A stretch of 64,000 nt of DNA, taken from NCBI GenBank assembly GCA_964415355.1, contig CAYPYS010000006.1, positions 752-64,751 on the forward strand, read 5' to 3'. Source of the stretch: an uncultured Planctomycetia bacterium. Its GTDB lineage: Bacteria; Omnitrophota; Gorgyraeia; Gorgyraeales; Gorgyraeaceae. Below are positions 777 through 53,606 of the stretch, piece by piece. Numbering within the stretch: position 1 is the stretch's first letter; the number at the start of each line of letters is the position of its first letter. The position numbers and the translations under genes were made by a program. Below the pieces are notes generated by a model. That model worked only from the letters and a program-made list of their open reading frames with translations. It was not told the DNA's origin and did no database searches.

Positions 777-777
777 T

Positions 778-2208: not shown

Positions 2209-2227
2209 ATAGGTGGTATCAAGAATT

Positions 2228-37602: not shown

Positions 37603-38426
37603 ATTATAATGATAAAACAAAAAAAGCCTATGGATTTTTATGGAAAACTCATAAAAATGCCTTATTCATAAATACATGGCATTTTAATGAAGTACAGGAA
37701 AGCGTTTCTGAGCCTATAGTAAGGGGTGGCTTTGGTATAGACATTGGTTCCGGATGTGGTTACGATACATATATTATGGCTAAAACCAATCCTTCAGTAA
37801 AGATATATAGCATGGATATAAGTGATGGAGTATACAAGACGAAAGAATTTAGTCAAGGGTTGGAGAATGTATTTGTGATAAAAGGATCTGTTTTGGATCT
37901 TCCAATAAAAAATAATATATTTGATTTTGCATATTCTTTCGGAGTATTGCATCATGTCTCTGATTCTGAGCGTGGCCTCAAGGAAATAACAAGGACTCTT
38001 AAGAAAGGTGCTCCTGTTTTTTTGTATCTTTACGAAGATCATTCAGAAAATCGTATTAAATATTATACATTAAAGCTGGTTACTGTTTTAAGAAAATTTA
38101 CAGTAAAGATACCTCCTAAAATTTTGTATGGTATTTCATATTTGATTTCTCCTATTATGGTAATTTTGTTTTCTTATCCCGCCAGAATTTTTAATAGATT
38201 TAGAATTTTAAAACCATTATCTGAAAAAATGCCTTTTAATTTCGGAACCCATCTTTTTTCTCTGGTGGGTAGTCTGTACGATAGATTTAGCGTCCCCATA
38301 GAAAATCGTTTTAGTAGGCAGGAGGCTTTTGATTTACTTAGTAAGAATAAATTTACCAAAGTCAAAATTAATAGATTAAGAACAAAAGCAGGGTGGGTGG
38401 TTTGGGGGCATAAAGATAAATGCTAA
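37596..38426 (+). CDS. class I SAM-dependent methyltransferase
   Basis: GIDIGSGCGYDTYIM; FGVLHHVSD. Confidence 0.6.
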   Translation: MLDYNDKTKKAYGFLWKTHKNALFINTWHFNEVQESVSEPIVRGGFGIDIGSGCGYDTYIMAKTNPSVKIYSMDISDGVYKTKEFSQGLENVFVIKGSVLDLPIKNNIFDFAYSFGVLHHVSDSERGLKEITRTLKKGAPVFLYLYEDHSENRIKYYTLKLVTVLRKFTVKIPPKILYGISYLISPIMVILFSYPARIFNRFRILKPLSEKMPFNFGTHLFSLVGSLYDRFSVPIENRFSRQEAFDLLSKNKFTKVKINRLRTKAGWVVWGHKDKC

Positions 38427-40258
38427 AATACGAAAATATAATCTGCATATCTTCTATTGACTGGGATTTTATATGGCAGCAGCACCAGTCTATCATGTCC
38501 AGACTCGCGAAAAATGGCAATAAAGTGCTGTTTATCGAGAACACAGGCGTTAGGACGCCTACAATAAAAGATATAGGTAGGATAAGACGGCGTATAATCA
38601 ACTGGTTTAGTAGCAGTAAAGGATTTAGGAAAGAGGCTGAAAACCTCTATGTGTATTCTCCGTTGATATTGCCGTTTCCTTATTTGAGAATCGCACGATT
38701 AGTAAATAGATTTTTATTACTCAGCCCTATAAAAAGATGGATGAAGGCGGTTGATTTCCATGACCCAATCATATGGACATTTTTACCTACCCCTATTACT
38801 TTGGATTTTACGGAAAACATATTTCACAAGGCCCTTGTCTATTACTGTACGGATAAGTTTTCAGCCACTTCAAGATCAGCTAAAAAGATAACCAGGTATG
38901 AGGAAGAAGTTATGAGAAAGGCTGATGCAGTATTTGTAATGGCGAGAGGGATGGTGGATTATTGTGCCAAATTTAACAAAGATGTTATGTGTATACCTAT
39001 GGGCATTGATGTGGGGAGATTTACCGATGATAAGAATGTTGCTGAACCTCTAGAGATAAAGGGAGTCAGTAGGCCTGTGATCGGCTTCATAGGAGGAGTG
39101 AGGAATTCCATAGACAAAGAGCTTGTTGTGTATCTTGCAAAGAGATTCAGCGGCTATACATTTGTTTTCGTGGGACCTATACAGACGGATATATCTAGGT
39201 TAAAGAGGATTGGAAATGTAATATTTACAGGCTCAAAGGATCACGAGGAGCTTAAAAGATATATAAAATTTTTTGACGTATGCATGATACCATACAAGAT
39301 AGACGATTATACGAATAATATTTCACCTGCCAAGCTAAACGAATATCTTATCATGGGAAAACCTGTGGTCTCTACTAGGCTTGGAGAGGTAGAGCGTTTC
39401 AATAGAGAGAATGGCAACATCTTGTTTGTAGGGGGTAATATAGAAGAGTTCGGAGATCTTATAATACAGGCTGTAGAAAAGGATAGTGATATTTTAAGGA
39501 AAAAGAGAAAAGAAGTTGCTTGTAATAATAGTTGGGACAAGAAGACAGAGAAGATGTCCGATATTATAATGACCGTGATTAAAAGAAAAGAAGAAGCGAT
39601 GGAATTAAATTGGAAGACAGGCCTTATGAGGCTATACCGAGAAGCCAGAGGCAAAACAGCAAAAGCTGTTGTTGCTATTGCAGCGTTATGGTTGATAATT
39701 TTTTATTCTCCTTTATTGTGGTTCATTGCTGAGCCTTTAAGGATTTCGCAGGTGCCGCAGAAAACAGACGCTATAGTTGTGTTTGGGGGCGGGGTCGGTG
39801 AGACCGGAAGCCCAGGCAAGAGCACCATAGAGAGAGCAAGATATGCCGTGAGTTTGTATAAAAAGGGGTATGCCGACACAATAATATTCTCATCGGGTTA
39901 TACCTATATATATAACGACGCCGAAAACATGAGGCTTTTTGCTGTCTCTATGGGCGTGCCCAAAAGAGATATTATATTAGAACAGAATGCGGATAGCGCT
40001 TATGAAAATGTAAGATTTTCCAAGGATATAATAAAAAGAAATGACTGGGATTCCATATTACTGGTCAGCTCGCCTTACAATATGCGTCGTGCTTCGCTTG
40101 TTTTTAATAAATGGGATCCTGATATAAAAGTTACCTATACTCCTGTGCCTGATAGCCAGTTTTATGATAAAAGCAAAGGTGTGAGGCTGGAACAGATACG
40201 AGCAATCGCTCACGAGTATTTGGGGATAATATATTATTTAATAAAAGGGCATATCTAA
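38420..40258 (+). CDS. GT4-like glycosyltransferase fused to C-terminal DUF218 (ElyC/YdcF/SanA-like) domain
   Basis: N-terminal 400 aa GT-B-like; C-terminus TDAIVVFGGGVGETGSPG...IIFSSGYTY...LLVSSPYNMRRA matches DUF218 signature. Confidence 0.5.
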   Translation: MLKYENIICISSIDWDFIWQQHQSIMSRLAKNGNKVLFIENTGVRTPTIKDIGRIRRRIINWFSSSKGFRKEAENLYVYSPLILPFPYLRIARLVNRFLLLSPIKRWMKAVDFHDPIIWTFLPTPITLDFTENIFHKALVYYCTDKFSATSRSAKKITRYEEEVMRKADAVFVMARGMVDYCAKFNKDVMCIPMGIDVGRFTDDKNVAEPLEIKGVSRPVIGFIGGVRNSIDKELVVYLAKRFSGYTFVFVGPIQTDISRLKRIGNVIFTGSKDHEELKRYIKFFDVCMIPYKIDDYTNNISPAKLNEYLIMGKPVVSTRLGEVERFNRENGNILFVGGNIEEFGDLIIQAVEKDSDILRKKRKEVACNNSWDKKTEKMSDIIMTVIKRKEEAMELNWKTGLMRLYREARGKTAKAVVAIAALWLIIFYSPLLWFIAEPLRISQVPQKTDAIVVFGGGVGETGSPGKSTIERARYAVSLYKKGYADTIIFSSGYTYIYNDAENMRLFAVSMGVPKRDIILEQNADSAYENVRFSKDIIKRNDWDSILLVSSPYNMRRASLVFNKWDPDIKVTYTPVPDSQFYDKSKGVRLEQIRAIAHEYLGIIYYLIKGHI

Positions 40259-41173: not shown

Positions 41174-42139
41174 ATGGAATACGAGAGAGGCGGAAAACAA
41201 AAGGAATTTTACGATAAGGATGATGTTATATATAGATGCTGCCCTTTGTGCAACAGTAAGGATAATCGTAATATCTATACTGAAAGAGGACATATAGCTA
41301 TAGTTAGTTGCAAGAAATGTGGTCTTATTTATACAAACCCCACAGTAAGAAGTTCTGAGAAAAACTACTGGGGTGAAGAAAATAAATATTACGAAGAGGC
41401 TCGTTTGATATTTCATAACACGGGGAAACATCACAGGGATACTAATTATTTGGAAGATATAAGCATAATAGAGCGCTTAAAGTCAGTCGGGTATTTTCTG
41501 GATATAGGAACGAATATGGGCATGTTTTTAAGGCATACGCGTGCGAAAAAATGGATTGTTACAGGAATCGAACCTTCGCCGGCTTTGTCTGAAATGGCTC
41601 GTAAATACTTTGATTTAAATGTAAAGACATGTTATTTGAACGAAGCGGGTTTTAAAGACGAATCTTTTGATATAGTGACAATGACGGATGTTTTTGAGCA
41701 TATAGCAGAACCTAAAAAGATGTTGGTTGATATAAAAAGAGTTCTTAAGCACAATGGTATATTATTCATAAAAGTGCCGAATGGGAGATGTAATCTATTA
41801 AAATTATGGCTCGCTAAGATATTCGACAGGTTAAAAGATTATGATATTTTTGACTCTTATGAGCATCTTACACATTTTACCCATGATACATTAAAAAGGA
41901 TGCTAGAGGAATGTGGTTTTAAGATCAAGAAAATCTATATAGGAAAACCCATACAGTTACCTGTCTGGCATAAATATGTGGGGCATTATTATCAATATCC
42001 TAGTCCGTGGTTTTTAGATTGGAAGAATTATATATTGAGGCAGGTGTTTTACTGGATATCTAAGTTAGAGCGGTTGCTAAGGTTTGGTAATATAGGTTAT
42101 TTTGCACCTAATATCGTGATGATAGCTTCTAAAATATGA
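41174..42139 (+). CDS. class I SAM-dependent methyltransferase with zinc ribbon (paralog)
   Basis: CCPLCNS...CKKCGLIY; FLDIGTNMGMFL; IVTMTDVFEHI. Confidence 0.6.
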   Translation: MEYERGGKQKEFYDKDDVIYRCCPLCNSKDNRNIYTERGHIAIVSCKKCGLIYTNPTVRSSEKNYWGEENKYYEEARLIFHNTGKHHRDTNYLEDISIIERLKSVGYFLDIGTNMGMFLRHTRAKKWIVTGIEPSPALSEMARKYFDLNVKTCYLNEAGFKDESFDIVTMTDVFEHIAEPKKMLVDIKRVLKHNGILFIKVPNGRCNLLKLWLAKIFDRLKDYDIFDSYEHLTHFTHDTLKRMLEECGFKIKKIYIGKPIQLPVWHKYVGHYYQYPSPWFLDWKNYILRQVFYWISKLERLLRFGNIGYFAPNIVMIASKI

Positions 42140-43314
42140 AAATCCTTAGAATAATTACGAGGCTTAATATAGGCGGGCCGGCGAGGAATGCGGTGTTTCT
42201 TACAGAGGGAATACCTCGAACAATATTGGTTTGCGGGGAGGTCAGTGAAGATGAGGGGGATATGATGTATCTGGCAAGGGAGAAAGGGATCGAGCCGGTT
42301 ATTGTACCCGAACTTGGCAGAGAATTATCCATTGTCAATGACTGGAAAGCGTTTTGGAAAATATATAGAATTATTAGCAGGGAGAGGCCGAATGTTGTAC
42401 ATACTCATACGGCAAAGGCAGGTACGCTGGGAAGAGGAGCAGTAATTTTATATAGATTGCTTCGTCGCTTTGCTCCTCGCAATGACATGGTAGATTCCCG
42501 CTTTCGCGGGAATGACAGAACGGTTATTTTGGTACATACCTTCCATGGGCATGTGCTGCATAGTTATTTTGGAAAAATTAAAACATTTATTTTTATATGT
42601 ATAGAAAAGATCCTGGCTATATTCACTGATAGGATAATAGCAGTTAGTGAGTCTTTAAAAAAAGAGCTGGCAGGGAGATTCAGGATAGCTCCTGAAGAAA
42701 AATTTTCTGTTGTGGAGCTGGGGTTTGAATTAGAGAAATTATTGGCATTAGAACCAAGGCTTAAATCCGATCGCGTGAATATTGGTATCGTAGGGAGGTT
42801 GACAGCAGTGAAAAATCATAAGATGTTGTTTAAAGTAGCCTCAAGGCTTAAGGCTCAAGGCTTAAGGCCTGGAATTATTGTTATCGGAGACGGAGAATTA
42901 AGAGGCGAGTTAGAAGTATACGCGAGGGAGTTAGGTATAGGAGATACAGTGAAATTCCGGGGATGGGTCAAGGATGTCACAGAGATATACAGAGAGCTGG
43001 ATATCGTGGCATTGACGTCTCTGAACGAAGGCACACCTGTCTCTATAATAGAGGCCATGGCCGCAGCAAGGCCTGTTGTCGTTGCCAGGGTTGGCGGGGT
43101 TAGTGATATCGTTCAAAATAGAAAGACAGGATATCTGGTTGATGCTGGCAATGAGGAAGGTTTTACGGAAAAATTAACGGATTTAATCAAAAACAAAGAG
43201 AGGCGCGTAGAATTTGGAAGATATGGTAGAGAATCGGTAAAAGATAGATTTTCAAAAGATAGGTTGATAGAAGATATGAAAAAAGTGTATGGATTCCCGC
43301 TTTTGCGGGAATGA
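42136..43314 (+). CDS. glycosyltransferase GT4 carrying an in-frame 25-bp repeat insertion
   Basis: HTHTAKAG...VHTFHGH GT4 N-domain interrupted by DSRFRGND encoded by the GATTCCCGC repeat; C-terminus LLRE also repeat-encoded. Confidence 0.65.
   Translation: MKILRIITRLNIGGPARNAVFLTEGIPRTILVCGEVSEDEGDMMYLAREKGIEPVIVPELGRELSIVNDWKAFWKIYRIISRERPNVVHTHTAKAGTLGRGAVILYRLLRRFAPRNDMVDSRFRGNDRTVILVHTFHGHVLHSYFGKIKTFIFICIEKILAIFTDRIIAVSESLKKELAGRFRIAPEEKFSVVELGFELEKLLALEPRLKSDRVNIGIVGRLTAVKNHKMLFKVASRLKAQGLRPGIIVIGDGELRGELEVYARELGIGDTVKFRGWVKDVTEIYRELDIVALTSLNEGTPVSIIEAMAAARPVVVARVGGVSDIVQNRKTGYLVDAGNEEGFTEKLTDLIKNKERRVEFGRYGRESVKDRFSKDRLIEDMKKVYGFPLLRE
42493..42517. repeat. 25-bp palindromic element GATTCCCGCTTTCGCGGGAATGACA (REP2), copy inside the CDS
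   Basis: read directly; translates in frame as DSRFRGND. Confidence 0.9.
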
Positions 43315-43337: not shown

Positions 43338-43441
43338 GTAAAAGAAAATAGATACTCCTGTGTCTATATATAAGAGAGGGGGTGAATTAAAGAGGTTGAT
43401 TTTTAAAGTCAGATGGCAGTATAATGCACAGGAGGAGAGCT

Positions 43442-43858
43442 ATGAAAAAAGATACTGGGAAAAAGACAATGCTAAAAGAAATCAAAGGCTATATTGATTC
43501 ATCATTAAAAGAAATCAAAGGATATGTTGATTTATCATTAAAGGAAGTCAAGGGATATGTCGATTCATCATTAAAGGAAGTCAAAGAAGAATTACAAGAG
43601 ACCAAGAGATATACGGGAGTTTTGGTCGAAGGTCTGCGGTCAGAGGTCAAGCTGGTGTTTGAGCAATATGGTACTGTTATAAGAAAGCTCGAGGATCATG
43701 ACAGAAGGTTTGATGAGATTGATAGAAGGTTTGAGAATATAGATGTTAGATTTAACTGCGTTGATCTTGAGCTTAAAGGTATGAAGACGGCATTGTTTGA
43801 CAATAGCCATAGGCTTAATGACCATGAGGGCAGGATCAGGAACTTGGAAATGAATTAA
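43442..43858 (+). CDS. hypothetical coiled-coil protein with 3x tandem 10-aa repeat (SLKEIKGYVD)
   Basis: aggagga RBS then ATG; 30-nt tandem repeats at about 43490-43580; no recognisable family. Confidence 0.4.
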   Translation: MKKDTGKKTMLKEIKGYIDSSLKEIKGYVDLSLKEVKGYVDSSLKEVKEELQETKRYTGVLVEGLRSEVKLVFEQYGTVIRKLEDHDRRFDEIDRRFENIDVRFNCVDLELKGMKTALFDNSHRLNDHEGRIRNLEMN

Positions 43859-43860
43859 TG

Positions 43861-43885
43861 GATTCCCGCTTTCGCGGGAATGACA
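43861..43885. repeat. REP2 copy
   Basis: gattcccgctttcgcgggaatgaca. Confidence 0.9.
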
Positions 43886-43896
43886 AAGGGGTCATC

Positions 43897-44859
43897 GTGA
43901 GGGTATTAATTACAGGCGGGGCAGGGTTTATTGGGTCGCACCTGGCAGATGAGCTGATAAAGGCCGGGAATGAAGTTGTGGTGCTTGATAATCTCTCAAC
44001 AGGCAGCTTTGAAAACATCGAGCACCTGACCGGGAACAAAATGTTCAAGTTTGTAGAAGGCACTATTTTAAATGAGTCCCTTGTGGACAAACTGGTCGGA
44101 CAGTGCGATGCAGTATACCACCTGGCAGCGGCAGTAGGCGTGGACCTGATAGTGAAAAAGCCGCTCGAGTCGCTCGTCACGAATATAAAAGGGAGCGAGA
44201 TAGTGCTTGAGATGGTGCATCGCTATCATAAAAAAATCCTTATAACGTCTACGTCTGAGATATATGGCAAGAACGCGAACGGTCCTTTAAAAGAAGAAGA
44301 TGACAGGATCCTTGGTTCGCCTTTGAAGTCCAGGTGGGGATATTCTACTGCAAAGGCAGTGGACGAGATGCTCGCGTATATATACTGGAGAGAAAAAAAA
44401 GTGCCGAGCGTGATAGTGCGGCTTTTCAATACTGTGGGTCCAAGGCAAACCGGCGCTTACGGCATGGTAATCCCAAGATTCATAAGCCAGGCGCTCAAAG
44501 GTGAAGACATAACAGTATATGGCAGCGGAAAACAATCTAGATGTTTCTTGCATGTTAAAGATGTAGTTATTACGCTTATAAAATTGATGAATAGCCATGA
44601 TGCCGTGGGAAAGGTTTTTAATATAGGCAGCCAGGAAGAGATAACCATAGAGGGCCTTGCGAAAAAGGTAATCGACATTACAAAAAGCAGGTCAAGATTG
44701 GTTTACGTGCCTTATGACAAGGCCTATGAAGAAGGTTTTGAAGATATGCAGCGCAGGGTCCCTGATACCAGCAAGGCAAGAGATGCGGTAGGTTTTAAGC
44801 CTACAGTGGATCTCAATGGAATTATTAAGAACGTAGTCGAATATTATAAAAATAGATGA
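43897..44859 (+). CDS. NAD-dependent UDP-sugar epimerase/decarboxylase (extended SDR, UXS/GalE-like)
   Basis: VLITGGAGFIGSHL...VVLDNLSTG; YSTAK; GTG at 43897 after aaagggg RBS. The upstream ATG at 43858 would make the N-terminus repeat-encoded (MDSRFRGND). Confidence 0.7.
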   Translation: MRVLITGGAGFIGSHLADELIKAGNEVVVLDNLSTGSFENIEHLTGNKMFKFVEGTILNESLVDKLVGQCDAVYHLAAAVGVDLIVKKPLESLVTNIKGSEIVLEMVHRYHKKILITSTSEIYGKNANGPLKEEDDRILGSPLKSRWGYSTAKAVDEMLAYIYWREKKVPSVIVRLFNTVGPRQTGAYGMVIPRFISQALKGEDITVYGSGKQSRCFLHVKDVVITLIKLMNSHDAVGKVFNIGSQEEITIEGLAKKVIDITKSRSRLVYVPYDKAYEEGFEDMQRRVPDTSKARDAVGFKPTVDLNGIIKNVVEYYKNR

Positions 44860-46637
44860 TATTGAAAAGCTACCTCATACCGTTTTTTCTGTCATTCGCG
44901 ATTTCAATCCTGCTCACCCCTTTTATAAAAAAAATAGCTGTTATTAAAGGCTATGTGGCACACCCTAACGGAGACCGCTGGCACAAGAAAGAGACCGCGC
45001 TTTTTGGCGGCATAGCTATTTTTATCTCGTTTATTATTCCTTATGTTATTTTTGTAAAACCTGACATCGAGGCCATTGGTATTCTTTTATGCGGAACTAT
45101 TATTTTTGCCTTAGGTGTTTTTGACGATATAAAGCGCATAAAGCCATACACGAAGCTAATAGGGCAGATCGTCATAGCGTCTTTACTGGTCAGTTTTGGC
45201 GTGAGCATAAAAATCATTCCTTACAGGATAGTGAGCATGCCGCTTACGATACTATGGATGGTGGCGATCGTAAATTCCTTTAATCTACTCGATAATATGG
45301 ACGGGCTTTCAACCGGCATTGCGGCGATCGTGACCGGTATCCTGTTTCTGTGTGCGGTTTTTAACGGAAATATTTTATTGGCATCAACGGCATTGATACT
45401 GGCAGGGAGCCTTTTAGGTTTTCTCAGGTATAATTTTAATCCCGCGAAGATCTTTATGGGAGATTGCGGCAGCATGTTTATAGGCTTTATGCTGGGCGCG
45501 ATAACTCTGCAGGGCAGCTGGAAAGAATCAACGCATTTGGTGATGATATTAGCTATCCCTGTTTTGGTATTGGCCGTGCCTATATTTGATACGACATTTG
45601 TAACGCTTGCGAGAGGGATAAGCGCGCGCAAGATCTTTCAGGGAGGCAAGGATCATATATCTCACAGGATGGTGGTTCTTGGGCTCTCAGAGAAGAATAC
45701 GGTGCTTGTGTTGTATTTCATAGGTTTATTTTTCGGAGGCATAAGCGTGCTTTCGATGTTTGTCGCGCCGATAATAACGCTAATGCTTGTCCTGGTTGCG
45801 GCTGTGAGCCTTATATATTTCGCGACATTTTTAGGCAAGGTCAAGGTCTATAGCGACGACAAGGCAAAGACATTGAAGAAGAAAAACGGCAACGTGGTGC
45901 TGGGCGGCGCGTTGATGCATAAAAGAAGGATGTTGGAAGTAGCCATTGACTTTATATTGATATGCGTGGCGTATGTCTCAGCGTATCTTTTGAGATTCGA
46001 AGGCGTATTGTCTCATACAAATCAGGAGCTTATCGTAAGGTCTCTTCCTGTTATATTGATAATAAAATACATCGTGTTCTTTAAGTTCGGGCTTTACAGG
46101 GGTATATGGAGATACGTGAGCGTGCCTGACCTTATAGACATATTTAAGGCAGTATTGACGGCATCTTTGTTTTCGGCAGTGGCTGTGCTTTTTATGTGGA
46201 GGTTTCATGGTTTTTCAAGGGCAGTGTTTATTATTGACTGGCTTTTACTTTTTATGCTGATTTCAGGCGCAAGAATACTTGAGAGGATCTACAAGGAGAT
46301 ATTTGACCAGGTAAGATTGGGCGATAAAAAGGTCTTGATATACGGGGCTGGCGATGCAGGAGAAATCGTTTTAAGAGAGATAAGGAACAATAAGGCATTG
46401 GGTTATAAGCCGGTCGGGTTCCTGGATGACGACGAAGAGAAATTAGGGAGGCGCATACATAACGTATCGGTCTTAGGCTCAAAGACTGACATGGCGCGTT
46501 TGATAAAACAGAAAGAAGTGGGGGAGATCATAATAGCAATACCAGACCTTCCAAAAGATATCTTTGAAGACACTGTGAGTATCTGCAGAAGCTTAGACGT
46601 AAGCTGCAAAAAGATGCACGACATCCTGCCAAAATAA
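44856..46637 (+). CDS. WecA/MraY-family polyprenyl-phosphate HexNAc-1-phosphate transferase fused to PglF/WbaP-type N-terminal (4 TM + CoA_binding_3-like) module
   Basis: NSFNLLDNMDGLSTG and other PNPT motifs in residues 1-330; C-terminal 260 aa with 4 TM and IYGAGDAGEIVLREI...PVGFLDDDEEKLG...VLG. Confidence 0.7.
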   Translation: MILKSYLIPFFLSFAISILLTPFIKKIAVIKGYVAHPNGDRWHKKETALFGGIAIFISFIIPYVIFVKPDIEAIGILLCGTIIFALGVFDDIKRIKPYTKLIGQIVIASLLVSFGVSIKIIPYRIVSMPLTILWMVAIVNSFNLLDNMDGLSTGIAAIVTGILFLCAVFNGNILLASTALILAGSLLGFLRYNFNPAKIFMGDCGSMFIGFMLGAITLQGSWKESTHLVMILAIPVLVLAVPIFDTTFVTLARGISARKIFQGGKDHISHRMVVLGLSEKNTVLVLYFIGLFFGGISVLSMFVAPIITLMLVLVAAVSLIYFATFLGKVKVYSDDKAKTLKKKNGNVVLGGALMHKRRMLEVAIDFILICVAYVSAYLLRFEGVLSHTNQELIVRSLPVILIIKYIVFFKFGLYRGIWRYVSVPDLIDIFKAVLTASLFSAVAVLFMWRFHGFSRAVFIIDWLLLFMLISGARILERIYKEIFDQVRLGDKKVLIYGAGDAGEIVLREIRNNKALGYKPVGFLDDDEEKLGRRIHNVSVLGSKTDMARLIKQKEVGEIIIAIPDLPKDIFEDTVSICRSLDVSCKKMHDILPK

Positions 46638-47701
46638 TGAAAATAGGGATAGATATTCGTCCGACACTCAAGAAGACAACAGGCATAGGCAAGTATACCC
46701 TTCATCTGATCAATGCCCTTGCAGAAGTAGATCCCGAAAATAGATATTTTCTCTACAGCAGAAAAAAGATATTGGATTTTAAAAGGCGGTTGCCAAGGTT
46801 GCCCGGCGCTAATTTTTCGCATCGCGTGGATCATTTTAAAAAAGGCGTGAGTGCAGCGATGCCGGAGATAGATATTTTCCACACCTCTTCTTATGACCTG
46901 GATAGGCCGAAAAAGGCAAAATATATCGTCACTGTCCATGATGTAATTATAAAGGCATATCCGCACGGCCATAGCGAGAAGACTATAAGAGAAACAGATG
47001 AAAAATTAAAAAAGATTTTAGGCGAGGCAGATGTGTTGGTGGCGGATTCCCATAGCACCAAAGCGGATCTGATGAGGTTTTATGATGTGGCCGAGTCAAG
47101 GGTAGCGGTAATCTATCCCGGAGTTAATTTTACGGAATACGGAATACGGGATGCGGAATGCGAAGACTATATTCTCTTTGTCGGGACGCTTGAGCCGCGA
47201 AAGAATGTAGATGGAGTCATAAAGGCGTATAGCTGGCTGAGAAAAAACTCAGGCGTGAGGCATAAGCTTTATATAGCGGGCATGAAGGGATGGATGTACG
47301 AAAATATTTTTAAGGAATACGAGAAGAGCGAATTTAAAAAAGATATTATCTTTAAAGGTTATGTAAGCGAACGAGAACTGAGCGCGTTGTACCAGAATGC
47401 GTCTTTATTCGTGTATCCGTCCTTTTATGAAGGTTTCGGGTTTCCTGTGATAGAGGCGTTTAGCTATGGAGTACCTGTTGTTACTTCGAAGACTTCTTCT
47501 TGCGGAGAGGTAGCAGGCGATAACGCATTATTGGTAGACCCTTCTAATATAAAGGAGATTAGAGAAGCAATGGCAAGACTCATTGCCGATAAAAACTTAA
47601 GGGAGCAGCTGGCGAGGCGCGGCCGAGAGAGAGCGAAGCAATTCACCTGGCGCAACACCGCCTCCGCCTTAAGTATACATTTCAACAACGTTAAAGTGTA
47701 A
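46637..47701 (+). CDS. glycosyltransferase GT4
   Basis: YPSFYEGFGFPVIEAFSYGVPVV; last 10 codons lie inside a 41-bp element. Confidence 0.7.
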   Translation: MKIGIDIRPTLKKTTGIGKYTLHLINALAEVDPENRYFLYSRKKILDFKRRLPRLPGANFSHRVDHFKKGVSAAMPEIDIFHTSSYDLDRPKKAKYIVTVHDVIIKAYPHGHSEKTIRETDEKLKKILGEADVLVADSHSTKADLMRFYDVAESRVAVIYPGVNFTEYGIRDAECEDYILFVGTLEPRKNVDGVIKAYSWLRKNSGVRHKLYIAGMKGWMYENIFKEYEKSEFKKDIIFKGYVSERELSALYQNASLFVYPSFYEGFGFPVIEAFSYGVPVVTSKTSSCGEVAGDNALLVDPSNIKEIREAMARLIADKNLREQLARRGRERAKQFTWRNTASALSIHFNNVKV

Positions 47702-47709: not shown

Positions 47710-47734
47710 GATTCCCGCTTTCGCGGGAATGACA
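47710..47734. repeat. REP2 copy
   Basis: gattcccgctttcgcgggaatgaca. Confidence 0.9.
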
Positions 47735-47743
47735 TTTTTCGCT

Positions 47744-48253
47744 ATGATACATATTTACACGGGTAATGGAAAAGGGAAGACTAGTGCGGCGTTTGGGCTG
47801 GCAATGAGGGCAAGCGGCCAGGGGCTCAAGGTCATTATATTTCAGTTTCTAAAGCCAAAGGAGATTGTGTCAGGCGAAGAGATCTCAGCAAAAAAGCTAA
47901 AGGGTTTAAAAGTGGTAAGATTTGACCAGGCGCACCCTATATTTAAAAATAAAAGCGAAGGCGTAAATAAGACTATAGAAGAAGATTTCGAAAAAACAAA
48001 AAAGGCTGCTTTAAGCGGTAAATACGATATGGTGGTGCTTGATGAGATCATCAATGTCGTGGACCAGGGTTTTATAAAAAAAGATAGTTTTATTAGTTTG
48101 CTAGGATCCGTTCCAGGGAAGTTAGAGTTAATCCTTACGGGCAGAGGTGATACTTTAGGGATAGAGGAATATGCGGATTATGTGACCGTAATGACAGATA
48201 AAAAACATCCTTTTAAAAAGACAACAGACGCACGGAAGGGTATAGAGTATTAA
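47744..48253 (+). CDS. cobO: cob(I)yrinic acid a,c-diamide adenosyltransferase (CobA/CobO/BtuR type)
   Basis: MIHIYTGNGKGKTSAAFGLAMRASG P-loop and overall 170-aa size. Confidence 0.8.
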   Translation: MIHIYTGNGKGKTSAAFGLAMRASGQGLKVIIFQFLKPKEIVSGEEISAKKLKGLKVVRFDQAHPIFKNKSEGVNKTIEEDFEKTKKAALSGKYDMVVLDEIINVVDQGFIKKDSFISLLGSVPGKLELILTGRGDTLGIEEYADYVTVMTDKKHPFKKTTDARKGIEY

Positions 48254-48263
48254 GGTTTTTTTG

Positions 48264-48303
48264 CTTAAGTATACTTTTAACATTGTTGAAATGTATACTT
48301 AAG
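48264..48303. repeat. 41-bp palindromic element, copy 12 (compensatory tatac variant)
   Basis: cttaagtatacttttaacattgttgaaatgtatacttaag. Confidence 0.85.
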
Positions 48304-48313
48304 GATTTTTTAA

Positions 48314-48342
48314 TTGACATAGCTGTAAAATAGTTGTATAAA
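48314..48342 (+). promoter_or_regulatory. sigma70-like promoter TTGACA-17-TATAAA
   Basis: read directly; located immediately upstream of the riboswitch. Confidence 0.45.
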
Positions 48343-48359
48343 ATAAGAAACCGAATATA

Positions 48360-48560
48360 TATTATATTGTTTAAGGGAAGCTGGTGTGAGTCCAGCGCAG
48401 CCCCGCTGCTGTAATAGGGTACGAAATCTGCAAAAAGTCATTGTCCTGGAGATTTAGGACGAGAAGGCGCAGAGATTAGAGCGATCCTTAAGTCAGAAGA
48501 CCTTGCAATGTGATCTTTAAAAAGCTACGCAGGGTAGCTTTGAGGGCCAAGTAAATCAGG
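48360..48560 (+). promoter_or_regulatory. cobalamin (AdoCbl) riboswitch
   Basis: GGGAAGCTGGTGTGAGTCCAGCGCAGCCCCGCTGCTGTAATAGGG core and AGTCATTGTCCTGGAGA B12-box-like segment; upstream of btuF. Confidence 0.7.
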
Positions 48561-48565
48561 GTGCA

Positions 48566-48600
48566 ACCCCGACTAAAAAAGTCGGGGTTTTTTATTTTGT
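48566..48600 (+). terminator. riboswitch expression-platform intrinsic terminator
   Basis: ccccgactaaaaaagtcgggg hairpin followed by ttttttatttt. Confidence 0.65.
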
Positions 48601-48606
48601 GATAAT

Positions 48607-49452
48607 ATGAGAAGATTTTTTATTATTAAATTTTTAATAATGTTTTTTCTAGCTTTTAGCAGCTATTCCTTTTCTTCGGAAGGCAAAAGGTTGAGGGTAG
48701 TCTCGCTTGCGCCGTCTACTACTGAGATATTGTTCGCGCTGAGGCTGGATGAGGAGATCGTAGGTGTAAGTTCATTCTGTAATTATCCCTTAAAAGCTCA
48801 GGAAAAAGATAAGATAGGGACTTTTAGCCACCCAAACATTGAAAAGATCCTGTCTCTAAAACCAGATATTGTGTTTTGTACAGGGCTTGAGCAGGCGCCT
48901 GTGATCAGTAAGTTAAAACAATTAAATCTGGAGGTCTTTGTCAGTGATCCGCAGAACATAGAAGAACTTTTTGATTCGATCAGGGATATGGCCGTGCTTA
49001 CAAGTCGCAGCAAAGAAGGCAAAGAGTTGATTAATAAAATGAAAAAAGGTGTAGAAGAAATAAGGTCAAAAACAGAGTCTATTCCAAAAGAAGACAGGGC
49101 GAGCGTTTTTATAGAATTTTGGAATGATCCCTTGATGAGTGCGGGTGATAATTCTTTTATCGGCGAATTGATCGCATTGGCTGGAGGCATAAATATTGCC
49201 CATGACGTTAAGAGACCTTATAGTTATTTTAGCCCCGAAGAAGTAATAAAGCGCAATCCCGATCGCATCATTCTGGCTTATATGGTCAATGAAGACGCGG
49301 CAAAGACAATAAGAAAACGCCTGGGCTGGAAAGATATATCAGCGGTTAAAAATAATCGCGTATATAGCGATGTTGATCCTGATATGCTTTTGAGGCCTGG
49401 ACCGCGTTTAGTAGAAGCCCTAGGGGAGTTATATAAAAGGCTATACCCGTAG
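48607..49452 (+). CDS. btuF: periplasmic cobalamin-binding protein of ABC transporter (BtuF/TroA-like)
   Basis: signal peptide; RVVSLAPSTTEILFAL...IVGVSSFCNYP. Confidence 0.75.
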   Translation: MRRFFIIKFLIMFFLAFSSYSFSSEGKRLRVVSLAPSTTEILFALRLDEEIVGVSSFCNYPLKAQEKDKIGTFSHPNIEKILSLKPDIVFCTGLEQAPVISKLKQLNLEVFVSDPQNIEELFDSIRDMAVLTSRSKEGKELINKMKKGVEEIRSKTESIPKEDRASVFIEFWNDPLMSAGDNSFIGELIALAGGINIAHDVKRPYSYFSPEEVIKRNPDRIILAYMVNEDAAKTIRKRLGWKDISAVKNNRVYSDVDPDMLLRPGPRLVEALGELYKRLYP

Positions 49453-49476
49453 ATTCCCGCTTTCGCGGGAATGACA
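49452..49476. repeat. REP2 copy
   Basis: gattcccgctttcgcgggaatgaca. Confidence 0.9.
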
Positions 49477-49480
49477 TGTG

Positions 49481-49519
49481 TTTAAGTTTACTTTTAACAT
49501 TGTTGAAAGTAAACTTAAG
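49481..49519. repeat. 41-bp palindromic element, copy 13 (short variant)
   Basis: tttaagtttacttttaacattgttgaaagtaaacttaag. Confidence 0.85.
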
Positions 49520-49529
49520 GGAGAAAATT

Positions 49530-50480
49530 TTGAAGAAGAAAATAGTATTTTTATTTTTAATATTGTTAGGCGTTGCGTTATTAGCGGTTAGCAAGGGGTC
49601 TGTTAGCTTGACCCTTAGGGAATTATTGCTTCAGGAAAATAGAAATATATTGTATCTGCGGTTTGCGCGTATTTTAATGGCGGCCCTGGCAGGCGCAGGC
49701 CTTGCAGTCTCAGGCATAGCGCTCCAGGCTATTCTGAGGAATTCGCTTGCCGAACCTTATATCCTGGGAACGTCTAGCGGCGCTGGGTTAGGGGCTATCT
49801 TGGCTATAATTATAGGTATAGGTGCTTCATTTTTACCTGTAATAGCATTTATAGGGGCAATATTAGCCATTGTACTAGTATATAACCTGGCAAAAGAAGG
49901 GAACCGCGTCGGTGTACAATCGCTTATTTTATCAGGGGTCATCGTGTCTATAGCGTTTTCTGCCATAATAGTCTTTATGGTTTCTCTGTCGAGCAACGAG
50001 GCCCTTCACGGGATGATGTGGTGGTTATGGGGGAATTTGCAAGTGTACGATGTTAAGCACTTATTTATAGTAGGCGCTATAGTGATAGCAGGCATTATCA
50101 TGATATATATATTGGCGCAAGATTTGAATGCGATAAGCATAGGAGAAGAAGAGGCAATGCATTTAGGTATAAACGCAGAGACAGTAAAAAAGATATTGTT
50201 CGTTATTACATCCATGATCACGGCGAGTCTTGTCTCCATATGCGGTATAATCGGTTTTGTGGGGCTCATTGTCCCTCACATGATGCGGTTTATAATAGGC
50301 CCTAACCATAAGGCGCTTATTCCTGCTACTTGCGTTGCAGCCGCGATATTTATGATAACATGCGATCTGATCTCCCGAATACTTTTGTCTCCGCTGGAGA
50401 TCCCTATAGGAGTCATTACAGCTGTTATAGGCGCGCCTGTGTTTATTATTTTATTGAAGCAGAAACAGAGGATCAGGTAG
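49530..50480 (+). CDS. btuC: cobalamin/siderophore ABC transporter permease (FecCD family)
   Basis: FecCD-like polytopic sequence; TTG start after aaggga RBS; the track's longer N-terminus is repeat-encoded. Confidence 0.7.
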   Translation: MKKKIVFLFLILLGVALLAVSKGSVSLTLRELLLQENRNILYLRFARILMAALAGAGLAVSGIALQAILRNSLAEPYILGTSSGAGLGAILAIIIGIGASFLPVIAFIGAILAIVLVYNLAKEGNRVGVQSLILSGVIVSIAFSAIIVFMVSLSSNEALHGMMWWLWGNLQVYDVKHLFIVGAIVIAGIIMIYILAQDLNAISIGEEEAMHLGINAETVKKILFVITSMITASLVSICGIIGFVGLIVPHMMRFIIGPNHKALIPATCVAAAIFMITCDLISRILLSPLEIPIGVITAVIGAPVFIILLKQKQRIR

Positions 50481-51278
50481 ATGCAGTCATTGGTCAGAGT
50501 GGATAGGCTTTCAGGAGGCTATTATAAAAAACTTGTAATAAAAGATGCCCTTTTTGAGATAAAAAAAGGGGATTTTTTGGGGATCATAGGGCCCAATGGT
50601 TCAGGTAAATCAACCCTTTTAAAGTTAATGACAAGGGTCTTGTCTCCGCAGTCAGGCAGTATTTTTCTTGAAGAAAAAGATATAAGAGGCATGGGGCTAA
50701 AAGAATTTTGCAGAAAGGTAGCGTTTGTGCCCCAGGATACGCTGATTAATTTTTCATTCAGCGTTGAAGAGATAGTGCTTATGGGCAGGATCCCGCATCT
50801 CAAGAGGATGCAGTTTGAGACAAAGAAGGACTTTTCAATAGCTTGCAATGCGCTTAAGCTGACAGATACCTTATATATAAAGGAGAAGGAGATAAGCCAG
50901 CTTAGCGCTGGCGAGCGCCAGAGAGTCATAATCGCAAAGGCGCTTGCGCAGGAGCCAATGCTTTTATTTCTGGACGAACCTACTTCCCATCTGGACATAG
51001 GCCACCAGGTGCAGATATTGGATCTATTGAAGAGGCTGAATAGAGAGAGCGGGCTTACAGTGGTTATGGTGATGCACGACCTGAATCTTGCGAGCGAATA
51101 TTGCAATAGGATAATGTTGTTTGATGAAGGCCGCATTTTTAAAGAGGGGACTCCTGAGCAAGTCCTGACCTATCAGAACATAGAAGCAGTATACAAGACA
51201 GTCGTGGTAGTGAAGAAGAGCCCTGTTTCTTCCAAGCCGTACGTAATACTGGTGTCGGGGAATAAGAGCATAGCCTAA
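50481..51278 (+). CDS. btuD: ABC transporter ATP-binding protein (BtuD/FecE-like)
   Basis: GIIGPNGSGKST Walker A; LSAGERQRV signature; LLFLDEPTSHLD Walker B. Confidence 0.8.
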   Translation: MQSLVRVDRLSGGYYKKLVIKDALFEIKKGDFLGIIGPNGSGKSTLLKLMTRVLSPQSGSIFLEEKDIRGMGLKEFCRKVAFVPQDTLINFSFSVEEIVLMGRIPHLKRMQFETKKDFSIACNALKLTDTLYIKEKEISQLSAGERQRVIIAKALAQEPMLLFLDEPTSHLDIGHQVQILDLLKRLNRESGLTVVMVMHDLNLASEYCNRIMLFDEGRIFKEGTPEQVLTYQNIEAVYKTVVVVKKSPVSSKPYVILVSGNKSIA

Positions 51279-51420
51279 GTTTACGCTTTAACATTGTTGA
51301 AGTAAAACCAGAGACGTTTACCGAGCCAATCGGGAACCTGTCTCATGTTTAAGGACAGGTTCCCGATTGGCTCGGTAAACGTCTCTAAAATACTTTAACA
51401 TTGTTGAAATGTAAACTTAG
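51274..51420. repeat. composite element: two 41-bp-element cores flanking a 33-bp-arm perfect inverted repeat (13-nt loop)
   Basis: ctaagtttacgctttaacattgttgaagtaaaac | agagacgtttaccgagccaatcgggaacctgtc-tcatgtttaag-gacaggttcccgattggctcggtaaacgtctct | aaaatactttaacattgttgaaatgtaaacttag. Confidence 0.85.
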
Positions 51421-51430
51421 ACAAGGTGAG

Positions 51431-51979
51431 ATGGCGACGAGATTGATATTGATCAGACATGGTGAGACAGATTATAGCACAGAGAAGAGATATTGCGGGC
51501 TTACGGATGTATGTTTGAACAAGAGGGGCATTGAACAGGCAGAAGGACTTTGTCAAAAACTTGGCGAAGAAGACGTTGATAAAGTCTATAGCAGCGATTT
51601 GAGGCGTGCATCAGAATTTGCGAAGATAGTATTTAAGAATAAAGAAATAGAACCCGCGCCTGAATTCAGGGAAATAAATTTTGGGATTTTTGAAGGATTG
51701 ACATATGAAGAGATCATGGATAGATATGCCGAGATATATAAAAAGTGGTTAAACGAGCCATACGAGAGCGTTATCCCTGAAGGTGATAGCTTGGCCGATT
51801 TTAAAAATAGGGTACAAAAGGCATTAAAAAAAATTATCCAGCTTAATAGAGGCAAGACATTGGCAATAGTTACTCATGCCGGGCCTATAAAGATAATAAT
51901 GAGAAATGTCACAAAATCCAAAAACATATGGGATATAAACCCTGAATTAGGAGGCTTCTGGAGATGCGCGTATGAGTAA
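51431..51979 (+). CDS. cobC: histidine phosphatase family protein (alpha-ribazole phosphatase CobC-like)
   Basis: RLILIRHGETDY RHG motif; operon context with cobU/T/S. Confidence 0.7.
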   Translation: MATRLILIRHGETDYSTEKRYCGLTDVCLNKRGIEQAEGLCQKLGEEDVDKVYSSDLRRASEFAKIVFKNKEIEPAPEFREINFGIFEGLTYEEIMDRYAEIYKKWLNEPYESVIPEGDSLADFKNRVQKALKKIIQLNRGKTLAIVTHAGPIKIIMRNVTKSKNIWDINPELGGFWRCAYE

Positions 51980-52499
51980 AATCACATTTATTTTAGGCGG
52001 GGCAAGGAGCGGTAAAAGTAAGTTTGCGACAGAAGAGGCTAAGGGGATCGGGAAAAAGGTTGCATTCATCGCAACCTGTAAGCCAATGGACAAAGAAATG
52101 GAAGAGCGTATCTCTATTCATAAAAAGGCAAGGCCAGCTGAATGGCAGACTTTTGAAGAGCCGCGGGATATACCTTTATTATTGAAAAAAATGAGCCGGG
52201 GATTCGAGGTTATTATAGTAGACTGCCTGACTCTCCTCGTGTCCAATCTGTTATTAGACGGATTTAAAGAAAAAGATATCGAGGAGAATATTAACGAGAT
52301 ACTTTTTGTATTAAATAAGCTAAAGGCTCATGTGATAATCGTATCCAATGAAGTAGGATTAGGTATAGTCCCGGATAATAAACTTGCAAGAGAATTCAGG
52401 GATATTGCCGGCAGGGTGAATCAGCTAGTAGCAAAGGAAGCCAATAAAGTGTTTTTTATGACATCCGGCCTGGCTTTAAAGATAAAAGGAGAGAAGTAA
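51972..52499 (+). CDS. cobU: adenosylcobinamide kinase / adenosylcobinamide-phosphate guanylyltransferase
   Basis: [17 protein letters not shown]-loop; 175 aa. Confidence 0.85.
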
Positions 52500-53554
52500 T
52501 GAATAAAACAAAGAAAGCCATTGCAAAGATAGGAGAAGTCGATAAGGGCCTTATGGATAAGGCACAGGAGAGGCTCGATAATCTCACTAAGCCTCAGGGC
52601 AGCCTGGGTCGATTAGAGGAACTTGCAAAACTTATCGTCGGTATTACTGGAAAAGAAAATCCTATGCTTAAAAACAAGGTCATTTTTACTCTTGCGGGTG
52701 ACCATGGCGTGACAGAAGAAGGCGTGAGTGTTTTTCCAAAAGAGGTGACTCCTCAGATGGTCTATAATTTTTTAAGGGGCGGGGCGGGTATAAATGTATT
52801 GGCAAATCATGTTGGCGCGAAAGTCAGAGTAGTGGATGTCGGAGTGGATAGCGGCCTGGAGTTACATCCGGAATTAATTGTTAAAAAAATAGACTATGGC
52901 ACAAAGAATATGACAAAAGGTCCTGCAATGACAAAGGAACAAGCGACAAGGTCAATAGAGGCAGGGATAGAGGTGTTCGAAGAGGAATTCAATAAAGGTA
53001 TAGATATAGTCGGCACTGGTGATATGGGAATTGGAAATACTACGCCGAGTAGTGCCATAACAGCTGTTTTTACTGGTAAACCAGTCGAAGAGGTTACGGG
53101 AAGAGGCACTGGTGTCGATAACAGCGGTTTAAAAAACAAAATAGATATTATTAAAAGAGCTCTTAAAGTAAATAAGCCGGATCCAAAAGACGCAATAGAT
53201 GTGCTGTCAAAGGTAGGTGGTTTTGAAATAGGTGGGCTTGCCGGAATAATACTTGCAACTGCTTCGCGAAGGATCCCTGTTGTAATAGATGGTTTTATCT
53301 CAGGCGCCGCAGCGCTTATAGCGTATCATCTAGAGCCAAAGGTTAAGGATTACATGATCGCAGGGCATTGCTCAGTGGAGAGCGGACACAAGATTATCTT
53401 GCAGCATATAGGACTTGAACCCGTATTAGACCTAAATCTGAGGCTCGGTGAGGGGACAGGGGCTGCGCTCGCAATGAGCATAATAGACGCAGGCCTTAAG
53501 ATCATGACACAGATGGCGACATTTAAGGGCGCCGGAGTTTCGGAAAAATGCTAA
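52499..53554 (+). CDS. cobT: nicotinate-nucleotide--dimethylbenzimidazole phosphoribosyltransferase
   Basis: [14 protein letters not shown] and overall CobT similarity. Confidence 0.9.
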
Positions 53555-53559
53555 CGGCG

Positions 53560-53598
53560 CTAACTTTACACTTCAACAACGTTAAAGTGTAAAGTTAG
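53560..53598. repeat. 41-bp palindromic element, copy 15 (subfamily 2, ctaac termini)
   Basis: ctaactttacacttcaacaacgttaaagtgtaaagttag. Confidence 0.85.
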
Positions 53599-53606
53599 AG
53601 ATCAAT

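Follow-up and report, generated by a model that had tools for sequence, protein, structure and literature searches.

A family of polytopic phosphoglycosyl transferases carrying the four-helix/Rossmann module of PglF-type dehydratases

The window analysed here is a 64,000-nucleotide stretch of contig CAYPYS010000006.1 (assembly GCA_964415355.1), from an uncultured bacterium that GTDB places in the Gorgyraeaceae (Omnitrophota). The penultimate gene of its glycan locus encodes a fusion protein in which a polytopic phosphoglycosyl transferase (PNPT) is continued by four transmembrane (TM) helices and a Rossmann-like domain of the CoA_binding_3 type, the 'domain of unknown function' (DUF) of PglF/WbpM-type dehydratases and WbaP-type transferases. 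With moderate confidence, and by analogy with WbaP, we read this protein as an initiating polyprenyl-phosphate sugar-1-phosphate transferase whose non-catalytic PglF/WbpM-type module would act on the PNPT as a nucleotide sensor or a scaffold. The architecture is not a one-off; it represents a large undescribed family spread across many phyla. Its parts are familiar. The combination of PNPT and module and a series of relatives in which a fused dehydratase appears to have decayed and vanished both bear on the open question of the role of the four-helix/DUF module.

Domain architecture and catalytic motifs

The layout of the fusion protein is given in Table 1. In Pfam, Glycos_transf_4 (PF00953) matches residues 74-219 (E 4e-35, 121.5 bits against a cut-off of 27), CoA_binding_3 (PF13727) matches residues 411-563 (E 1.5e-14, 54.8 bits against a cut-off of 25) and PglD_N matches residues 492-562. 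Among the NCBIfam models, WecA spans residues 11-325, and the N-terminal halves of the WcaJ, EPS (sugar transferase) and WbaP models (profile positions 2-229) align with residues 364-590. Kyte-Doolittle hydropathy and an AlphaFold2 model built with 36 homologues (predicted local distance difference test score, pLDDT, 79; predicted template modelling score, pTM, 0.72) concur on 11 TM helices in residues 1-326, a low-confidence basic linker (327-358) and four further TM helices (359-480), which the model draws at 347-380, 387-410, 423-448 and 455-485. The C-terminal domain is modelled as five strands and three helices, with the chain stopping 7 residues past strand 5. When the model was compared with the PDB using Foldseek, its first half matched MraY 5jnq (E 1e-9, target template modelling score 0.79) and human DPAGT1, and its second half matched WbaP 8t53 (E 1e-4 over 246 columns) and 3nkl (E 5e-4, template modelling score 0.68-0.70). 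MraY 5jnq was also recovered by sequence (phmmer, E 1e-12).

An earlier sequence-only reading had proposed a MraY/WecA-type PNPT in residues 1-330, with four TM helices and a CoA_binding_3-like Rossmann region behind it and neither a bac_transf nor a dehydratase domain to follow. Pfam, NCBIfam, hydropathy and the structural model bear out each of these points, with the motif NSFNLLDNMDGLSTG located at residues 140-154. Pfam found neither domain, a tblastn search of the whole window found no PglF-type dehydratase domain, and the Rossmann domain is followed at once by the end of the chain, at residue 593.

All catalytic motifs of a MraY/WecA-type PNPT are present. Residues D90, D91, N140, N143, D146, D149, G150, L151, F200-M201-G202-D203, H267, H270 and R271 are invariant in 36 of 36 aligned sequences, and the central motif reads N140-x2-N143-x2-D146-x2-D149-G-L. 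In WecA and MraY the equivalent positions are the Mg2+-binding and catalytic aspartates and the sugar-recognition loop. By sequence and by modelled fold alike, the protein belongs to the PNPT superfamily. In common with WecA, TagO, MraY and DPAGT1 it has the fold, the number of TM helices (11, the count described for WecA), the DD, NxxNxxDxxDGL and FMGD motifs and a histidine-containing cytoplasmic loop, whereas those characterised PNPTs are without its 267-residue C-terminal extension. The name 'WecA-type' is nonetheless a loose label: the superfamily assignment stands, but the protein falls short of the WecA equivalog (TIGR02380; 112.2 bits against a cut-off of 326), just as it does of the MraY equivalog (52 bits against 192). 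Its PNPT half is 35-40% identical to TagO/WecA-like PNPTs of Bacillota and about 30% identical to standalone WbpL-like PNPTs from two loci described below.

According to the positive-inside rule, the DD, NxxNxxDxxDGL, FMGD and histidine loops, the basic linker and the Rossmann domain would all be cytoplasmic. Since an 11-helix PNPT terminates in the cytoplasm, which is the side on which a PglF/WbaP-type four-TM module has to start, the fusion would be topologically seamless: the eleventh helix would bring the chain back to the cytoplasm and the four extra helices would put the Rossmann domain on the active-site face of the membrane.

Table 1. Coordinates of the fusion gene, its parts and the related genes discussed in the text (window positions unless a locus is named)
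Feature	Coordinates	Strand	Description
Whole fusion gene	44856..46637	+	593 aa; open reading frame list and translation; PNPT fused to four-TM + Rossmann (PglF-type) module
PNPT (polytopic phosphoglycosyl transferase) catalytic domain	44856..45833	+	residues 1-326; 11 predicted TM helices; PF00953, 5jnq, hydropathy, model helices
Asp90-Asp91, cytoplasmic loop	45123..45128	+	36/36 aligned homologues
NSFNLLDNMDGL motif	45273..45308	+	residues 140-151; inside PF00953 match; N140, N143, D146, D149, G150, L151 invariant
Basic cytoplasmic linker (KVKVYSDD...KKK...HKRR)	45834..45929	+	residues 327-358; pLDDT <50 over 328-353
Four-TM-helix bundle	45930..46295	+	residues 359-480; hydropathy, model helices, NCBIfam WcaJ/WbaP N-terminal alignment, PglF-type N-terminus of locus L035
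Cytoplasmic Rossmann-like domain (CoA_binding_3 / 'DUF')	46296..46634	+	residues 481-593; PF13727, PF17836, model secondary structure, 3nkl
GAGDAG (GxGxxG) nucleotide-binding loop	46344..46361	+	residues 497-502; acidic partner pair D524-D525 after strand 2
Degenerate full fusion P0123	L081 4664-7474
Degenerate full fusion P0140	L085 882-3809
Degenerate full fusion P0149	L083 6001-8868
Upstream extended short-chain dehydrogenase/reductase (SDR) gene	43858..44859	+	333 aa; Pfam Epimerase + GDP_Man_Dehyd; stop overlaps fusion start
GT4 glycosyltransferase, first cassette gene	42136..43314	+	392 aa; Glycos_transf_1, E 5e-36
Downstream GT4, last gene of the glycan locus	46637..47701	+	354 aa, complete; Glycos_transf_1, E 4e-39; start overlaps fusion stop

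An intact gene

A frameshift, a misassembly or a gene-calling error that merged a PNPT gene with a truncated neighbour would explain so unusual a chain trivially, and a look for frameshifts at 46.6 kb had been named as a check. This explanation is refuted, and we assign it practically no probability. The gene is a continuous frame whose start overlaps the stop codon of the SDR gene upstream, and its TAA stop (46635-46637) shares bases with the ATG of the next gene at the junction TAATG; because that next gene, which the sequence-only reading had also given as a GT4, is intact, the overlap leaves no room for a frameshift or a hidden downstream domain. The identical protein (P0001, 100%) is present on several independent contigs. 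Furthermore, homologues at 47-83% identity, in more than 100 clusters, carry the same three Pfam domains in 589-626 aa, and the C-termini of these hundreds of homologues, of like length, fall within a few residues of one another in the alignment. No PglF-type dehydratase domain or remnant was found in any frame of the window by tblastn, with either intact or degenerate SDR domains as queries; elsewhere in the window there was only weak, generic SDR similarity.

Origin of the C-terminal module

The module had been described as 'PglF/WbaP-like', and the two halves of that name fared differently. Sequence comparison makes it clearly a module of the PglF/WbpM dehydratase type and not of the WbaP type. 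Two loci were central to this comparison, L035 (Ampullimonas aquatilis) and L079 (a Desulfobulbaceae metagenome-assembled genome, MAG), in which a standalone PNPT (357 and 339 aa, respectively) is followed after 3-4 nucleotides by a 649-aa CoA_binding_3 + Polysacc_synt_2 protein. Against a profile of the Omnitrophota modules, the PglF-type N-termini of these two loci scored 162-168 bits and other PglF-type N-termini up to about 250 bits, within the range of fusions from other phyla, whereas the WbaP-type N-terminus (a single sequence, from the fetched loci) reached 20 bits. The PglF-type N-terminus of L035 is 32% identical to the window module (E 5e-33). A broader module profile matched 96 residues of 3nkl (E 1.4e-17) and 210 residues of WbaP (E 1.3e-8). 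Consistent with this, at least 85% of the truncated fusions keep D365, P398, Y414, W418, R473, G497-A-G499, G502, E508, G521-F, D524-D525, G541 and C577, and PglF-type proteins conserve those same residues (GAGxxG, E508, GFxDD, G541, C577, R473 and W418 among them).

If the module instead came from a WbaP-type large monotopic phosphoglycosyl transferase (Lg-PGT), the protein would be a chimera of two phosphoglycosyl transferase superfamilies. The NCBIfam WcaJ, EPS and WbaP models do cover residues 364-590 at E 7.5e-25 to 3e-18, and the Foldseek match to WbaP 8t53 extends over 246 columns. NCBIfam, however, returned no PglF-type N-terminal model for this protein, making that comparison one-sided, and where the two types were compared directly the PglF type scored far higher. 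In addition, the tested non-fusion proteins from the best 150 module matches described below all carry Polysacc_synt_2 and none bac_transf, and full fusions bearing a dehydratase exist. We rejected a WbaP origin on the direct profile comparisons and hold it to be highly improbable. The comparison with the WbaP N-terminal module that the sequence-only reading had called for thus yielded a homologous but distant four-TM + DUF unit which, in the window protein, is without the beta6/beta7 hairpin.

Distribution across phyla

In a scan of one genome per GTDB species, full-length matches to the fusion protein were found in Omnitrophota, Candidatus Scalindua, several families of Acidobacteriota, Chloroflexota and Anaerolineales, Heliomicrobium, Desulfobacterales, Desulfovibrionaceae, Gaiellaceae and other Actinomycetota, Fibrobacterales and one Pseudomonadota MAG. 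At the level of phyla, the fusion architecture, with a length of about 590-620 aa, is present in Omnitrophota, Planctomycetota, Acidobacteriota, Chloroflexota, Bacillota, Desulfobacterota and Actinomycetota. When open reading frames (ORFs) were re-derived, most proved intact, with a length of 583-626 aa, and combined the PNPT motif with a GxGxxG some 100 residues short of the C-terminus; such intact frames came from Scalindua, Acidobacteriota, Chloroflexota, Heliomicrobium, Desulfobacterales and Gaiellaceae, and two were confirmed by Pfam.

The module itself (residues 355-593) was searched exhaustively with phmmer against 1.84 billion cluster representatives, 581 of which matched at E<=1e-30. 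The best 150 of these 581 comprised 56 PNPT+module proteins, five PNPT+module+Polysacc_synt_2 proteins, 15 classic PglF-type proteins, six PglF-type proteins with an extra N-terminal stretch and 68 fragments. Among these 150, 26 bear a dehydratase and none is of the WbaP type. The earlier description of the architecture as unusual therefore holds in so far as it is undescribed, since we found no account of a PNPT + four-TM + DUF protein in the open-access literature, and fails in so far as this is a multi-phylum family of more than 100 clusters. Database entries for these fusion proteins carry the names 'hypothetical protein' or 'glycosyl transferase', or a WecA-type label, all of which the present assignment corrects.

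Two of the collected PNPTs match only the four-TM part of the module in the called ORF: L023 5962-7446 (494 aa, Bifidobacteriaceae MAG) and L027 5965-7545 (526 aa, Chloroflexia MAG). Both may represent a further truncation of the module. In L027 a frameshift is possible, as the tblastn alignment ran on to query residue 587. Two apparent stand-alone four-TM + DUF proteins, P0152 and P0141, lie on contigs of 0.9-2.0 kb with their starts at the contig edge.

Probable decay of the fused dehydratase

The module had also been described as lacking its usual catalytic partner. This is true of the window protein, but five relatives of 936-1013 aa carry PNPT, module and a Polysacc_synt_2 dehydratase in a single chain. 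Two of them, P0230 and P0242, have strong Polysacc_synt_2 matches (328-370 bits) with STDKA or SSDKA intact, and PNPTs that are 28-31% identical to that of the window and resemble the standalone PNPTs of L035 and L079. The other three, P0123, P0140 and P0149 (936-975 aa), are genuine genes on independent contigs. Their PNPTs are 45-52% identical to that of the window, and their modules score 286-321 bits, the highest among dehydratase-bearing relatives.

In these three closest relatives the dehydratase appears degraded. The catalytic signature of the family is TDKxnMx3K (PMC8987622). In P0123, P0140 and P0149 the Polysacc_synt_2 matches are weak (139-178 bits), TDK has become TSK, SIK or IEK, and MxxxK has become AxxxR, LxxxR or FxxxK, with the NAD-type glycine motif retained. 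Judged by their residues, these proteins are candidate pseudo-dehydratases or enzymes of changed activity.

The relatives thus form four grades: separate, adjacent PNPT and PglF-type genes; full fusions; catalytically degraded full fusions, which are the closest relatives; and the truncated form found in the window. Because the closest full fusions have a degenerate dehydratase active site, the most parsimonious reading of these sequences is that the window protein is the truncated end of a fusion lineage and not a fresh chimera. On this reading, a TagO/WecA-like PNPT would have joined a complete PglF-type dehydratase, the dehydratase would have lost its catalytic residues and later been deleted, and the four-TM/Rossmann module would have been retained under purifying selection.

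A single origin of all PNPT-PglF fusions from a WbpL-WbpM adjacency was considered and rejected, as the PNPTs fall into two lineages by type: P0230 and P0242 are WbpL-like, whereas P0123, P0140, P0149 and the truncated family are TagO/WecA-like. Most parsimoniously, WbpL-like PNPTs would have joined PglF-type dehydratases independently.

Function of the retained module

Several lines of evidence argue that the retained module is functional and not a relic. It is conserved like the catalytic domain across at least seven phyla. Pairs of sequences in the Omnitrophota alignment are on average 54.7% identical in the PNPT, 56.6% in the four-TM bundle and 51.7% in the Rossmann domain, with the linker lowest at 42.9%. 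The glycine loop and the acidic pair (G497, A498, G499, G502, D524 and D525) are invariant in the homologue alignment. The competing view, in which the module is a vestige of the lost dehydratase and serves at most as a membrane anchor, can point to the missing catalytic partner and to the L023 and L027 proteins, which appear to have lost more and keep only the TM part in their called ORFs; yet even among lineages with as little as 47% identity the module matches the catalytic domain in conservation, its signature residues, the GxGxxG loop and the DD pair among them, show little or no variation, and an enzyme with 11 TM helices does not need another anchor. We consider a vestigial module very unlikely.

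What a functional module might do is suggested by WbaP, from which the experimental data on the module come. The DUF of WbaP binds UMP, UDP and UTP, becomes less stable with UDP-Gal and provides the dimer interface, and the full-length enzyme is inhibited by UMP with a half-maximal inhibitory concentration of 4.1 uM (PMC10942596). On this basis a 'one-size-fits-all' allosteric brake on undecaprenyl phosphate consumption was proposed for the WbaP module, and its presence in both WbaP and PglF was called 'puzzling' in the same 2024 structure paper (PMC10942596). For the window protein, we infer that the PNPT half would transfer a UDP-linked sugar-1-phosphate, probably an N-acetylhexosamine derivative, to undecaprenyl phosphate at the cytoplasmic face, with release of UMP. 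Because UMP is a by-product of PNPT reactions as well, the brake logic of WbaP would transfer to this enzyme. A uridine nucleotide or a UDP-sugar is the most likely ligand of the Rossmann domain, which, like the WbaP module, would modulate the transferase and possibly also its oligomeric state or its partner enzymes. The output may be allostery, dimerisation or partner recruitment.

A number of points weigh against this account. The regulatory role is drawn by analogy from a WbaP module that is related only distantly (the profile E of 1.3e-8 given above). The domain-swapped beta6/beta7 hairpin that constitutes the dimer interface of the WbaP DUF (PMC10942596, PMC12802240) is absent from the modelled window protein, whose chain ends right after strand 5. 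EpsZ likewise has no hairpin, and for that enzyme a response-regulator partner has been proposed, from structural modelling, for the active dimer (PMC12802240). The WecA model, at 112 bits against 326, does not supply the donor sugar. With respect to ancestry, the local profile comparison held just the one WbaP-type sequence, and the neighbour-joining tree of the modules is star-like and carries no support values, so that it is consistent with the decay series and nothing more. The order fusion, inactivation, truncation is most parsimonious, not demonstrated, and the degenerate dehydratase domains could have acquired a new activity.

One further protein from the module search, P0156 (744 aa), couples a PglF-type dehydratase (CoA_binding_3 + Polysacc_synt_2) to a response-regulator receiver domain at its C-terminus. 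It deserves mention because recent work reports that the single-domain response regulator EpsW activates the WbaP-type EpsZ.

The adjoining SDR gene

The gene immediately upstream of the fusion encodes an extended SDR with orthologues (51-58% identity) next to fusion genes in 13 loci of Omnitrophota, Planctomycetota, Acidobacteriota, Chloroflexota and Bacillota, and it is more conserved than the fusion protein itself. Homologues of the GT4 at 42136-43314 (31-45% identity) precede the SDR or the fusion gene in 14 loci, so that a GT4-SDR-fusion cassette recurs across phyla. In the window, start and stop codons overlap among the genes from 43424 to 47701 (a 144-aa ORF without family match, the SDR, the PNPT fusion and the GT4). 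Of the solved structures, that of human UDP-glucuronate decarboxylase (UXS1; E 7e-57) comes closest to the SDR. LegB, RmlB and UXS are its best matches, yet it falls far below every NCBIfam equivalog cut-off, and all three assignments were rejected. The protein looks like a member of an uncharacterised, strongly conserved subfamily of nucleoside diphosphate-sugar-modifying enzymes that, on the evidence of gene neighbourhood and sequence, is tied to this PNPT.

This synteny motivates a different account of the module, namely that it is a docking platform (a metabolon) which recruits soluble enzymes of the pathway, chiefly the upstream SDR, in place of the lost cis dehydratase and so channels UDP-sugar to the PNPT. 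Besides the overlap of the SDR gene with the fusion start and the conserved adjacency in 13 loci of several phyla, this account draws on two observations: no epimerase/SDR Pfam gene lies directly upstream in the three fusion loci that keep a degenerate dehydratase in cis, and the same module tethers an SDR domain to the membrane in PglF/WbpM systems (PMC8987622). On the other side, the SDR orthologue also lies beside three standalone PNPTs that have no module (L039, L045 and L055), roughly half of the fusion loci whose flanks are complete have no SDR of this kind within 3 kb, and the resemblance of the SDR to UXS, LegB and RmlB is below cut-off throughout. Docking seems to us rather unlikely, though it is compatible with a nucleotide-sensing role of the module.

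Relation to known initiation systems

The O-antigen loci of Pseudomonas aeruginosa encode WbpL, a PNPT, and then WbpM, a membrane UDP-GlcNAc 4,6-dehydratase. The components follow the same order as in the window protein, PNPT and then the four-TM + CoA_binding_3 module, and the adjacent gene pairs of L035 and L079 repeat this arrangement; L079 also has an SDR gene directly upstream, as in the window. WbpL and WbpM are, however, two proteins, whereas the window has one polypeptide without the Polysacc_synt_2 domain.

Two enzyme families invite comparison, and the window protein belongs to neither. With the membrane-anchored UDP-GlcNAc 4,6-dehydratases PglF (Campylobacter jejuni), CapD/Cap5D and WbpM it has in common the four-TM bundle and the signature residues of the Rossmann-like DUF, and its best solved module match, 3nkl, is the isolated DUF of a PglF-type homologue from Vibrio fischeri. 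Those enzymes carry an SDR domain with TDK...MxxxK, and the window protein has neither; their module is N-terminal, whereas here it lies C-terminal to another enzyme. The protein is thus not a member of the PglF/WbpM family and bears only its accessory module. The Lg-PGTs WbaP, WcaJ and CpsE are likewise initiating transferases that place a sugar-1-phosphate on undecaprenyl phosphate with a four-TM + DUF unit in cis, and both reactions release UMP. Their catalytic domain is bac_transf, a domain absent from the window protein, which relies on the unrelated polytopic MraY fold; their module precedes the catalytic domain, and here the order is reversed; and their module is only distantly related, with the window protein, like EpsZ, devoid of the dimerising beta-hairpin. 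It is consequently no Lg-PGT either, and bears the accessory module common to the two families.

WbaP-type enzymes are the most abundant class of bacterial glycan-initiating enzymes, and the module is also carried by the PglF/WbpM/CapD dehydratases. The fusion family adds a third host, the unrelated polytopic transferases, and with it a natural deletion experiment in which the dehydratase appears to have decayed and vanished while the module remained no less conserved than the catalytic domain. That the module was kept after loss of the dehydratase argues that it is not a mere dehydratase membrane anchor, and that its role is bound up with the step catalysed by the initiating transferase. More speculatively, we suggest as a tentative generalisation that the four-TM/Rossmann unit may be an 'initiation-step' module that belongs, physically and functionally, to the phosphoglycosyl transferase and not to the dehydratase, sitting in cis on WbaP and on the PNPT fusions and in trans, on the dehydratase, in the PglF/PglC and WbpM/WbpL systems. 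If this were true, the fusions would be Rosetta-stone evidence that WbpM/PglF-type dehydratases dock onto the initiating transferase through the module, and two unrelated enzyme superfamilies would have converged on one regulator that senses UMP and UDP-sugars and rations undecaprenyl phosphate. The fusion proteins offer a compact, testable system for UMP/UDP-sugar sensing, for control of undecaprenyl phosphate use and for WbpL-WbpM complexes.

The glycan locus and its surroundings

The glycan locus lies on a single strand from about 3.6 to 47.7 kb (about 44 kb). It contains many GT4 and GT2 glycosyltransferases, at least nine methyltransferases, B12-binding radical S-adenosylmethionine (SAM) enzymes, an MBOAT/AlgX-like pair, two PMT_2-type GT-C proteins, an AsnB-like amidotransferase, a UDP-GlcNAc 2-epimerase and RmlD. 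Neither Wzx nor Wzy_C nor any ABC-exporter family was detected in the locus. The MBOAT membrane O-acyltransferase and the AlgX-type SGNH protein that follows it (21367-23929) resemble the AlgI/AlgX pair that O-acetylates polysaccharide. The genes at 23926-25605, 30860-32203 and 32193-33542 encode the two PMT_2/ArnT-like GT-C membrane glycosyltransferases and a 449-aa protein without family match. Two further composite proteins are a 657-aa fusion of an N-terminal GT2 and a C-terminal class-I methyltransferase (11678-13651) and a 612-aa protein with a GT4-type C-terminal domain and a C-terminal DUF218 (38420-40258).

Three B12-binding radical-SAM enzymes are encoded at 751-3580 and 27095-28585, and a fourth radical-SAM ORF lies at the window edge (42-776). 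Together with the at least nine SAM methyltransferases, the radical-SAM enzymes suggest that the glycan undergoes unusual C-methylation or other radical chemistry. The gene that follows the locus, at 47729, encodes a corrinoid adenosyltransferase and opens a cobalamin salvage and uptake cluster (47729-56918) comprising this BtuR/CobO adenosyltransferase, a BtuF-like binding protein, a FecCD permease, an ABC ATPase, a CobC-like phosphatase, CobT, CobS and a TonB-dependent receptor, which may supply the B12-dependent radical-SAM enzymes upstream.

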